Below, in pieces: positions 55,534 to 56,545 of a stretch of DNA of 64,000 bases. The notes beneath the pieces were generated by a model that saw nothing but the letters and a program-made list of their open reading frames with translations, made no database searches and was not told where the DNA came from. Each line of letters starts with the position of its first letter. The first letter of the stretch is position 1. Made by a program: the position numbers and the translations under genes. Origin of the DNA: Escherichia coli (lineage in GTDB: Bacteria > Pseudomonadota > Gammaproteobacteria > Enterobacterales > Enterobacteriaceae); assembly GCF_045037415.1 (NCBI RefSeq), contig NZ_CP173438.1; one strand, 5' to 3'.

Positions 55534-56545
55534 AAAGGTGAAAACCGGCAGTTCATCCAGTAAGTCTGTATTGACCTGGCTTGCTGATATGTGCGGTGCC
55601 GATTTGTGTGCATACCCGTCTGTATCTGCACTGGCAGAAGTAACGGAACTAAACAAAAAGACTGTGCAGGACAGCTTACGACACCTGATGGAGATTGGGT
55701 TAATTGTTGATACCGGTGAGAGAAAAGGCAGAACAAAGCAAATTGTGGTGTACCGACTTATCGGTGTAGAAGAAAGTGTTGCCGAGCCTGAATACACCCA
55801 AAAACGGGAGTCTTTAAAGGTGGGTAAAATTGGTGCTGTTAATAAAAACAGTACCGAAAATGGTTATGTTTCAGCACAAAACAGACCCAAAAATGGAACT
55901 CTTAGCTGCATGGAAAATAACCAAAGACACCCAAATTTTCCATCAAAGACACCCAAAAACGGATCACGGAACCCAAAGGAACCCAAAGATCTAAACCCCA
56001 CACATAACGCACGCGAGAGTGCTCCGACCAGTGAGCAGGAAGTTTTGTCGTTACAGGCAGCACCCCTTGTATTCCTGGATGGCCTGAGCGAACCCATCGG
56101 AAAATTTCCGATGACCGATAGCTGGTATCCGTCACGGGATTTTCGACGACGGGCTGCGTTGTGGGGGATGGCTTTGCCGGAGACAGAATTTACACCTGCT
56201 GAACTTGCCGCCTTCCGGGACTACTGGGCAGCGGAGGGGAAAGTGTTTACGCAGATTCAGTGGGAGCAGAAATTCGCCCGTCACGTAAATCACGTCAGGG
56301 CGCAGGTTAAACCAGTCAGCAAGGGGGTAAACCATGCAGCAGCACCAGGTGGCACCGCATCACGGGCAGTTCAGGAAATTCGGGCAGCACGTGAGCAGTG
56401 GGAACGTGAAAACGGATTTATCAGCGACGGAAACAGTCTGGAAGCTGTGGGAACTCATGGGGGAGGTTTATTCGAACCGCTGGACCCAGAAGAACGGGGC
56501 CGCACCTTCGAAGCTCTGGATTGCACAGATTGGCGCGATGACTGA
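55505..56545 (+). CDS. Replication initiation protein (N-terminal HTH, C-terminal DnaT-like region), lambda O analogue
   Basis: Start at MSIDALRWAKKV...; contains iteron-like repeats within the coding sequence; translationally coupled (ATGACTGA) to a P-like gene. Confidence 0.6.
   Translation: MSIDALRWAKKVKTGSSSSKSVLTWLADMCGADLCAYPSVSALAEVTELNKKTVQDSLRHLMEIGLIVDTGERKGRTKQIVVYRLIGVEESVAEPEYTQKRESLKVGKIGAVNKNSTENGYVSAQNRPKNGTLSCMENNQRHPNFPSKTPKNGSRNPKEPKDLNPTHNARESAPTSEQEVLSLQAAPLVFLDGLSEPIGKFPMTDSWYPSRDFRRRAALWGMALPETEFTPAELAAFRDYWAAEGKVFTQIQWEQKFARHVNHVRAQVKPVSKGVNHAAAPGGTASRAVQEIRAAREQWERENGFISDGNSLEAVGTHGGGLFEPLDPEERGRTFEALDCTDWRDD
55915..55995 (+). repeat. Iteron-like direct repeats (putative phage replication origin) inside the replication gene
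   Basis: aaagacacccaaa appears twice and ggaacccaaag twice within about 80 bp, encoding a low-complexity linker. Confidence 0.5.

Follow-up and report, generated by a model that had tools for sequence, protein, structure and literature searches.

The replication origin of bacteriophage lambda lies in the initiator gene O and comprises four 18-base-pair (bp) iterons and an AT-rich region, with O and P as its replication proteins, and an origin placed inside its own initiator gene is textbook knowledge for both lambda and the Shiga toxin (Stx) phages. RepA_N plasmid initiators of Firmicutes, such as pSK41 RepA, likewise carry an N-terminal winged helix and have a repeated-site origin in the middle of the rep gene. 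Here we analyze a comparable array of short repeats in a prophage initiator gene (55505..56545, plus strand) of Escherichia coli, contained in a 64,000-nucleotide (nt) stretch of contig NZ_CP173438.1 (assembly GCF_045037415.1), hereafter referred to as the window, to which all positions refer. The repeats occupy the part of the gene that encodes the linker between an N-terminal winged-helix domain and a DnaT-like C-terminal domain, and their sequence and arrangement suggest that they are probably the initiator-binding sites of a lambda-type bidirectional origin.

Several related systems have been described in detail. The Stx phages 933W and P27 contain six iterons in O, and in Stx-phage origins weakly bound sites are still required, while synonymous iteron mutations abolished plasmid establishment (PMC7466680). 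DopC and DopE of Cellvibrionales and Oceanospirillales combine an HTH_36 domain with a DnaT C-terminal motif and are encoded beside a lambda-P-like gene; DopC is a domesticated chromosomal gene, not the origin, and was reported without iteron-like repeats (PMC5509034). The type of array considered here is therefore ordinary, as origins within initiator genes are known for lambda and Stx phages and the HTH_36, DnaT_C, and P architecture was described earlier; surveys of O157 prophages already refer to this gene as 'O'. In the non-subscription literature searched, no description was found of the iterons of this family, their spacing grammar, or their GAAYC repeats, and a paper on the Eru replication region mentions neither iterons nor DnaT.

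Clustered repeats in the linker-coding DNA

The linker DNA between 55793 and 55988 contains about six sites of the CCC-AAAA(A)-CGG type, one of which is degenerate, followed by two GAACC 10-mers. An initial annotation of this stretch had reported two copies each of a 14-mer and of ggaacccaaag at 55915-55995 and had interpreted them as iteron-like repeats within an O-like gene. Both pairs were located in the linker: CAAAGACACCCAAA is present exactly twice, at 55922-55935 and 55944-55957 (an offset of 22 nt), and GGAACCCAAA forms a tandem pair (55968-55977 and 55978-55987). Although repeats are indeed found at the reported place, the array actually starts at approximately 55793, roughly 120 nt further 5', and the two repeats do not form one set. 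The 14-mer represents the left halves of iterons, whereas ggaacccaaag belongs to a separate GAACC pair, the counterpart of a GAAYC repeat (12-13 nt) that follows the iterons in relatives. The proposed parallel with lambda, in which iterons lie inside the initiator gene, is well supported by copies in all three reading frames, by palindromic units with A-tract centres, and by the comparison with 40 homologues, 37 of which have such an array in the matching part of the gene.

The signal resides in the clustering of the repeats, since the total number of ACCCAAA copies in the window (nine, against 8.8 expected) matches chance. Six of these nine lie within 192 nt, at 55796, 55885, 55929, 55951, 55971, and 55981, all on the plus strand. 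Across 300 first-order Markov windows, the densest 200 bp held one to three copies of this word; no other 7-mer in the real window reaches at least four non-overlapping copies per 200 bp, and in 60 random windows a cluster of any word never exceeded four. The consensus CCCRAAAAYGGK, built from relatives with the window excluded, has five matches with at most one mismatch in the 64 kb, four of which are at 55797, 55853, 55886, and 55952. The array also coincides with the lowest GC content in the gene (33-37% between 55800 and 55960) and shows a pronounced skew of A over T.

The repeats are a feature of the DNA rather than of the encoded peptide, because the six ACCCAAA copies are spread over all three reading frames. 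The two copies of the 14-mer are translated as QRHPN and KTPK, respectively, so a peptide repeat offers no explanation for them. An alignment of the window with two Klebsiella, one Pantoea, and one E. coli relative (alignment A4; 61-65% DNA identity) contains six syntenic sites. Pairwise identity averages 82% in their cores, compared with 66% in the ungapped spacers (permutation p<0.0002). Of the third codon positions, 10 of 20 are invariant in the cores, compared with 10 of 92 in the domain-coding part; the remaining linker has 13 of 41 and the C-terminal part 48 of 141. A scan of IMG/VR added 80 near-identical E. coli copies with few variants overall, a sample that is informative for polymorphism but not for diversity.

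Anatomy of the individual sites

The array spans nt 293-459 of the gene and consists of four near-consensus sites, one variant site, and one decayed site, all on the plus strand. The first site, IT1 (CCCAAAAACGGG, extended ACACCCAAAAACGGGAGT; 55797..55808), is a full palindrome with no mismatch to the family consensus, and 10 of its 12 columns are invariant in the alignment with closer relatives. It is followed by the decayed IT2* (GTAAAATTGGTG; 55824..55835), whose counterpart in Klebsiella and Pantoea is the full site CCAAAAACGGGA. IT3 (ACCGAAAATGGT; 55853..55864) and IT4 (CCCAAAAATGGA; 55886..55897) each carry one mismatch to the consensus and have orthologous sites in relatives, which for IT3 read CCCGAAAACGGG. 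Both are polymorphic at one position. At 55861, the window has T and a minority of E. coli copies have C, which generates the perfect palindrome ACCGAAAACGGT; at 55894, T in the window is replaced by C in most of the sampled IMG/VR E. coli copies, giving CCCAAAAACGGA. Both C variants are nearer to the family consensus (AAAACGG). The motif string ACCGAAAACGGT also matches papillomavirus E2 sites, which was treated as coincidence.

The last two sites, IT5v and IT6, account for the 14-mer pair of the initial annotation, each aaagacacccaaa copy consisting of the left flank and left arm of one of them. IT5v (CCCAAATTTTCC; 55930..55941), in the first aaagacacccaaa copy, has only a left arm together with a T-tract and is kept as CCCGTTTTTTCC in Klebsiella and Pantoea. 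IT6 (CCCAAAAACGGA; 55952..55963), in the second copy, has one mismatch to the consensus and 11 of 12 invariant columns in the same alignment. E. coli, Klebsiella, and Pantoea all retain the variant form of the penultimate site, CCCRWWTTTTCC, which has a left arm, a T-tract, and CC replacing GG, and comparable CCCAA..TTCC sites are found in the arrays of Acinetobacter, Bcep176, and AP22.

Arrays across homologues of the N-terminal domain

Arrays directly after the N-terminal domain were seen in records read directly for phiV10, Vibrio H20, Acinetobacter AP22, Burkholderia Bcep176, and Edwardsiella GF-2, and a survey covering a single genome per species contributed 35 further loci, including Acinetobacter, Vibrio, Pseudoalteromonas, Providencia, Proteus, Arsenophonus, Methylobacterium, Desulfovibrionaceae, and Zoogloeaceae. 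An array was defined as at least four copies of one 9-mer (with at most one mismatch) within nt 251-500 of the gene, and the same count in shuffled linkers and in the domain-coding part mostly gave two to three copies. Counted in this way, 37 of the 40 N-domain homologues, including those from Enterobacterales and Burkholderia, contain an equivalent array at the same place. The initial annotation had named absence of the repeats from functioning homologues as evidence that would speak against it; the observed pattern is the opposite, with the domesticated DopC being the protein reported without them (PMC5509034).

The arrays share a common design. Their units are A-tract-centred palindromes, such as GATCCCAAAAACGGGATC in phiV10, ATCCCAAAATTGGGAT in GF-2, GTGCCAAAAGTGGCAC in Zoogloeaceae, and CCCCCGAACGTGGTTCGGGG in Desulfovibrionaceae. 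Distances between neighbouring units peak at 17 nt (36 cases), 22 nt (31), and 24 nt (29), with 98 of 162 spacings not divisible by three, and copies fall into more than one reading frame in 30 of the 37 arrays. Where the period is 24 nt, relatives encode recurring peptides in frame, such as NDPKNGML. The most divergent iterons belong to proteins with a diverged wing motif (DTGERKGxT), a qualitative sign that the wing motif and the iterons may co-vary.

All 10 homologues analyzed with Pfam score above the HTH_36 threshold, and the DnaT-like C-terminus is present in phiV10 only. As judged from these comparisons, the repeats go with the N-terminal domain and not with the C-terminus, because homologues with unrelated C-termini possess the array and the YdaU protein of Rac-SA53 is encoded without it. 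Initiators carrying the sites adjoin helicase loaders or helicases. The downstream partner varies: AP22 has a replicative helicase gene directly next, GF-2 and phiV10 have a P-like gene, and Vibrio H20 has neither. Such a distribution gives the appearance of an origin cassette that has been shuffled between helicase-recruitment strategies.

GAACC repeats, duplex stability, and the module junction

The iterons are followed by two tandem GAACC repeats (GAACCCAAAG twice, period 10; 55969..55988, plus strand), which represent a candidate unwinding element. In about 27 of the 37 loci, the last iteron is succeeded by two or three GAAYC units that recur every 12-13 nt (e.g., AGAACCAGTCAT); examples include locus L003 (nt 1809-1850), L004 (Vibrio H20; nt 1971-2010), L097 (nt 1944-1985), and most of L088-L122. 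No other 30-mer of the gene is as unstable as the GAAYC stretch in the Klebsiella, phiV10, and Acinetobacter relatives, and in lambda, used as a control, the known AT-rich region likewise has the lowest stability of any 30-mer in O. The GAAYC repeats may act as a sequence-specific unwinding element. In IMG/VR contigs L077 and L079, a third GGAACCCAAA copy at approximately nt 464-493 of the gene frameshifts the initiator, which is truncated at 513 nt, indicating that this 10-mer is a slippage hotspot able to inactivate the gene.

A conserved tail, ATCTAAACCCCACACATAAC (55989..56008, plus strand), lies at the junction of the N-terminal origin module and the C-terminal module, with 15 of its 20 columns invariant in the alignment of the window and its closer relatives. 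Similarity to the Rac-SA53 ydaU gene begins right after the last repeat, at approximately 55988. The sequence ATCTAAACCCCACACATA, which closes the origin module, is kept both in relatives and in the Rac-type ydaU (L002, nt 2995-3030) despite the unrelated N-terminus of the latter. On the basis of these alignments, it marks the exchange point of the two gene halves, and it may represent either a recombination junction or part of the origin.

The initiator protein and its helicase loader

The initiator gene encodes 346 amino acids (aa), with an HTH_36-type winged helix at the N-terminus, the repeat-bearing linker, and a DnaT-like domain at the C-terminus; in RefSeq it is labelled as 'DnaT-like ssDNA-binding domain-containing protein', where ssDNA denotes single-stranded DNA. 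The winged-helix domain (aa 1 to ~92; 55505..55780, plus strand) is presumed, on the strength of its model, to be the iteron reader. The HTH_36 (PF13730) score of the window protein is 20.8-23.5 bits and falls just short of the 25-bit cut-off, whereas 10 full-length relatives, which are 33-56% identical to it in alignment, score 40.9-52.7 bits, all over the cut-off; the profile was matched by all 26 aligned homologues (E<=0.1, best 6.9e-16). An AlphaFold2 (AF2) model of aa 1-100, computed with the 26 homologues as input, gave a confident winged helix (mean predicted local distance difference test score, pLDDT, 88.6), in which four helices are joined by a beta-hairpin wing and a further short helix at the C-terminus; the winged helix ends at about residue 92. 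The pLDDT drops at aa 98-100, and the start of the linker is not confidently folded. Foldseek matches of this domain in the PDB are generic winged helix-turn-helix regulators, with the N-domain of pSK41 RepA (4pql) at rank 14 (E=0.01), and those in a viral model library are phage 'HTH domain' models, one of which is annotated as replication protein O. A PDB sequence search with the N-terminal domain found nothing significant.

The description of the gene as O-like did not extend to membership in the lambda O family. The match to Phage_rep_O (PF04492) remained below the Pfam threshold (E=0.049; 14.6 bits against a cut-off of 28.7 bits), and only three of the 26 homologues matched this family, each weakly. 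In a BLASTP comparison of the N-domain with lambda O, the repeat-encoded peptides were the only matches. By contrast with Phage_rep_O, the DnaT-like C-terminal domain (PF17948; aa 201-267; 56105..56305, plus strand) was detected above the gathering score (E=6.5e-17, 61.5 bits) and is presumed to contact ssDNA or the loader.

The adjacent gene (56538..56999, plus strand) encodes a lambda-P-like helicase loader (Phage_lambda_P, PF06992, E=5.2e-16), and its boundaries are those of the RefSeq 'replication protein P' in EDL933. Its start overlaps the initiator stop (ATGACTGA, ATGA), and the two genes are translationally coupled. An ATG-initiated open reading frame (ORF) of 221 aa at 56334-56999 takes in the P-like gene and shares 212 nt with the 3' end of the initiator gene, read in another frame; it may give rise to an N-terminally extended P product.

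Prophage setting, distribution, and signs of activity

The initiator gene is preceded by an immunity and early region (54287..55533, both strands) with a cI/DicA-like repressor gene (54287-54694, minus strand; Pfam HTH_3), a Cro-like gene (54771-54998, plus strand; P22_Cro), and a YdaT-like gene (54982-55533, plus strand; YdaT_toxin). Early transcription would enter the origin from the cI/cro/ydaT side. A scan for promoters and terminators across 54200-57100 revealed nothing beyond shuffle expectation, and the DnaA-box consensus TTWTNCACA is absent in and near the gene, with four occurrences in the window, which is chance level. Further upstream, a 284-aa ORF (52148-53002, minus strand) separates the immunity region from the recombination genes of the prophage.

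At 98.8% identity, the region matches the 'PPompW' prophages of Shiga-toxin-producing E. coli, and O157:H7 EDL933 contains the same module in the prophage adjoining ompW, with the gene order of the early region being identical in PPompW and EDL933. The site of prophage Sp9 in strain Sakai corresponds to the ompW locus, listed under the older gene name yciD. The N-terminal module was found in 908 of 5426 complete E. coli genomes, about 906 of which have it intact with 95% identity or more. Among the sampled IMG/VR copies, 65 of 76 retain all 1041 nt of the ORF, and several of the shorter versions are cut by a contig end.

Two circular E. coli records consist of the repressor-to-P region together with downstream accessory genes. 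NZ_CP148379.1 (pZ1323HEC0067-2; 8,461 bp) encodes cI, cro, ydaT, the initiator, and P, with no other replication gene in its full RefSeq table. NZ_CP148543.1 (pZ1322PEC0161-3; 15,643 bp) contains the repressor-to-P region, with cI and P listed and no initiator coding sequence (CDS) at the matching position. Both look like natural lambda-dv-type replicons or products of local over-replication. In addition, the Sp9-type prophage of Sakai is reported to excise, circularise, and be packaged. In view of these indirect hints and of the intact genes, we lean slightly toward the suggestion of the initial annotation that the origin is still functional and that the copy in the window fires.

Proposed origin function and alternative explanations

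By analogy with lambda (PMC7466680 and textbook accounts of O, P, and DnaB), the array would operate in several steps. Dimers of the N-terminal winged helix would bind the palindromes, each with a CCC arm, an A-tract, and a GGG arm, at IT1, IT3, IT4, and IT6, with weaker dimer binding at IT5v. Bending at the A-tract centres would shape the DNA into an O-some-like complex, and the duplex would open beside or within the array, which in relatives is likely to occur at the GAAYC stretch just 3' of the iterons. The DnaT-like C-terminus and the P-like loader would then bring in host DnaB. Such a lambda-like role is supported because the array is family-wide and palindromic and its cores are conserved above the spacers, and the setting favours an origin because a P-like loader is coupled downstream and a cI/cro early region lies upstream.

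Several observations weigh against this interpretation. Homology of the N-domain to lambda O is undemonstrable by sequence, as hhalign aligned its HTH and wing region with the lambda O N-terminus at a probability of only 4%. The right arms are weakened in IT3 (GGT), IT4 (GGA), and IT6 (GGA) relative to GGG in relatives, IT2* is decayed where relatives have a full site, and the site spacings in the window (27, 29, 33, 44, and 22 nt) depart from the 17, 22, or 24 nt of the family. The GAACC pair aligns with the GAAYC repeats of relatives minus 3 nt of spacing, and no least-stable stretch lies downstream of the array, the least stable 30-mers (55838-55867 and 55914-55943) both being inside it. 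The PPompW record contains a frameshifted exonuclease gene, Sakai Sp9 is defective in several functions and not induced by mitomycin C, and the circular records could be assembly artefacts. Moreover, no binding, unwinding, or replication experiment on this module was found in the literature searched.

Much of this evidence could also be read as the sign of an eroded relic, that is, an array homologous to a real origin that has fallen silent in the E. coli Sp9/PPompW-type lineage and is retained with its gene. The decayed site, the three weak right arms, the 3-nt loss between the GAACC repeats relative to Klebsiella, Pantoea, and E. coli 1344, and the missing low-stability stretch downstream are all in line with such decay, as are the exonuclease frameshift, the defective and non-inducible Sp9, and the copies frameshifted by 10-mer expansion. 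We nevertheless regard it as rather unlikely, in view of the full-length ORF in most IMG/VR copies, the intact loader gene, and the detection of circular and packaged Sp9 DNA. Four sites retain at most one mismatch, and two iterons with the adjacent AT-rich region are cited in PMC7466680 as enough for lambda in vitro; circular records also exist in which this E. coli-type module provides the sole replication genes, although the 15.6-kb one has no listed initiator CDS. A different possibility is that the sites are regulatory, serving autoregulation, an initiator roadblock to early transcription, or host factors. Their location inside an early transcription unit would suit such a role, and multiple dimeric winged-helix sites could form a roadblock, yet the parallels with the lambda origin in position, in A-tract palindromes, and in the low-stability repeat stretch downstream in relatives make it very improbable, as do the association of the sites with initiators adjoining loaders or helicases and the lack of a DnaA-box consensus in or near the gene. 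Least credible is a purely protein-level origin of the repeats, in which slippage produced a flexible linker rich in Pro, Lys, and Asn (PKNG-like peptides) and the DNA itself is functionless. The NDPKNGML-type in-frame repeats of 24-nt-period relatives, the shifting copy number of the 10-mer by slippage, and the linker start that is not confidently folded are in line with it, but it does not accommodate the use of all three frames in the window, the multi-frame arrays that predominate in the family with their dominant 17- and 22-nt spacings, or the differing peptides of the 14-mer pair. Selection on a peptide would also leave unexplained the palindromes, the more conserved third codon positions of the cores, and the absence of an array from the equally long linker of Rac-type YdaU.

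Within the preferred interpretation as a lambda-type origin, a broader proposal can be put forward tentatively, namely that the HTH_36 domain, the iteron array, and the GAAYC repeats form one portable origin cassette across phages of many Proteobacteria, an idea not described in the literature searched. Such a cassette might follow a fixed grammar, with 17-nt and then 22-24-nt spacings, a conserved penultimate variant site, and freely combined helicase-recruiting C-termini. Its GAAYC repeats might represent a sequence-specific unwinding or single-strand-binding element, beyond mere AT-richness.

These results point to a probable replication origin for a prophage module present in about one-sixth of complete E. 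coli genomes, among them that of O157:H7, where it sits in the prophage at ompW. The current database label of the gene is only 'DnaT-like ssDNA-binding protein'. They would extend the lambda rule of an origin inside the initiator gene to the large and widespread HTH_36 initiator family and provide a simple sequence signature for locating phage origins. The understanding of how such origins work is unchanged, and the family-wide architecture is the most useful by-product.

Comparison with known systems

The closest parallel in design is lambda itself, and the comparison with lambdoid origins suggested by the initial annotation revealed the same design as that of the annotated lambda iterons. 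According to the annotation of NC_001416, these comprise ATCCCTCAAAACGAGGGA and three variants, spaced 20, 24, and 23 nt apart, from nt 349 of O; in the window, the core CCCAAAAACGGG starts at nt 293 of the gene, directly after the folded domain, and the lambda array is likewise inside the initiator gene. In lambda, as at IT1 of the window, a palindromic site places an A-tract between a C-rich and a G-rich arm (ATCCCTCAAAACGAGGGA compared with ACACCCAAAAACGGGAGT). In both, the spacing is out of frame and approximates two helical turns, a P-type loader gene lies immediately 3', and the genes form part of an early rightward operon. The window differs from lambda in having arms that are 2 bp shorter, irregular spacing, and no clear AT-rich stretch downstream, and its initiator falls outside Phage_rep_O, with a DnaT-like C-terminus instead of that of lambda O.

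Stx-phage origins resemble the array in having more than four sites of unequal strength within the gene. However, their initiators are true lambda O orthologues with lambda-type iterons that have been tested experimentally. RepA_N initiators belong to a different family with a different host range and different partners, and the likeness is limited to an analogy of layout, with 4pql being a weak fold match. DopC shares the architecture of the window initiator, but the array is present only in the prophage gene. The Rac-SA53 YdaU is instructive in a complementary way: it has the same cI/cro/ydaT context, and its C-terminal half (aa 161-346) is 87% identical to that of the window protein, with the junction ...TAAACCCCACACATA... 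in common, whereas its N-terminus is unrelated and its equally long linker is encoded without a CCC-A-tract-GGG array.

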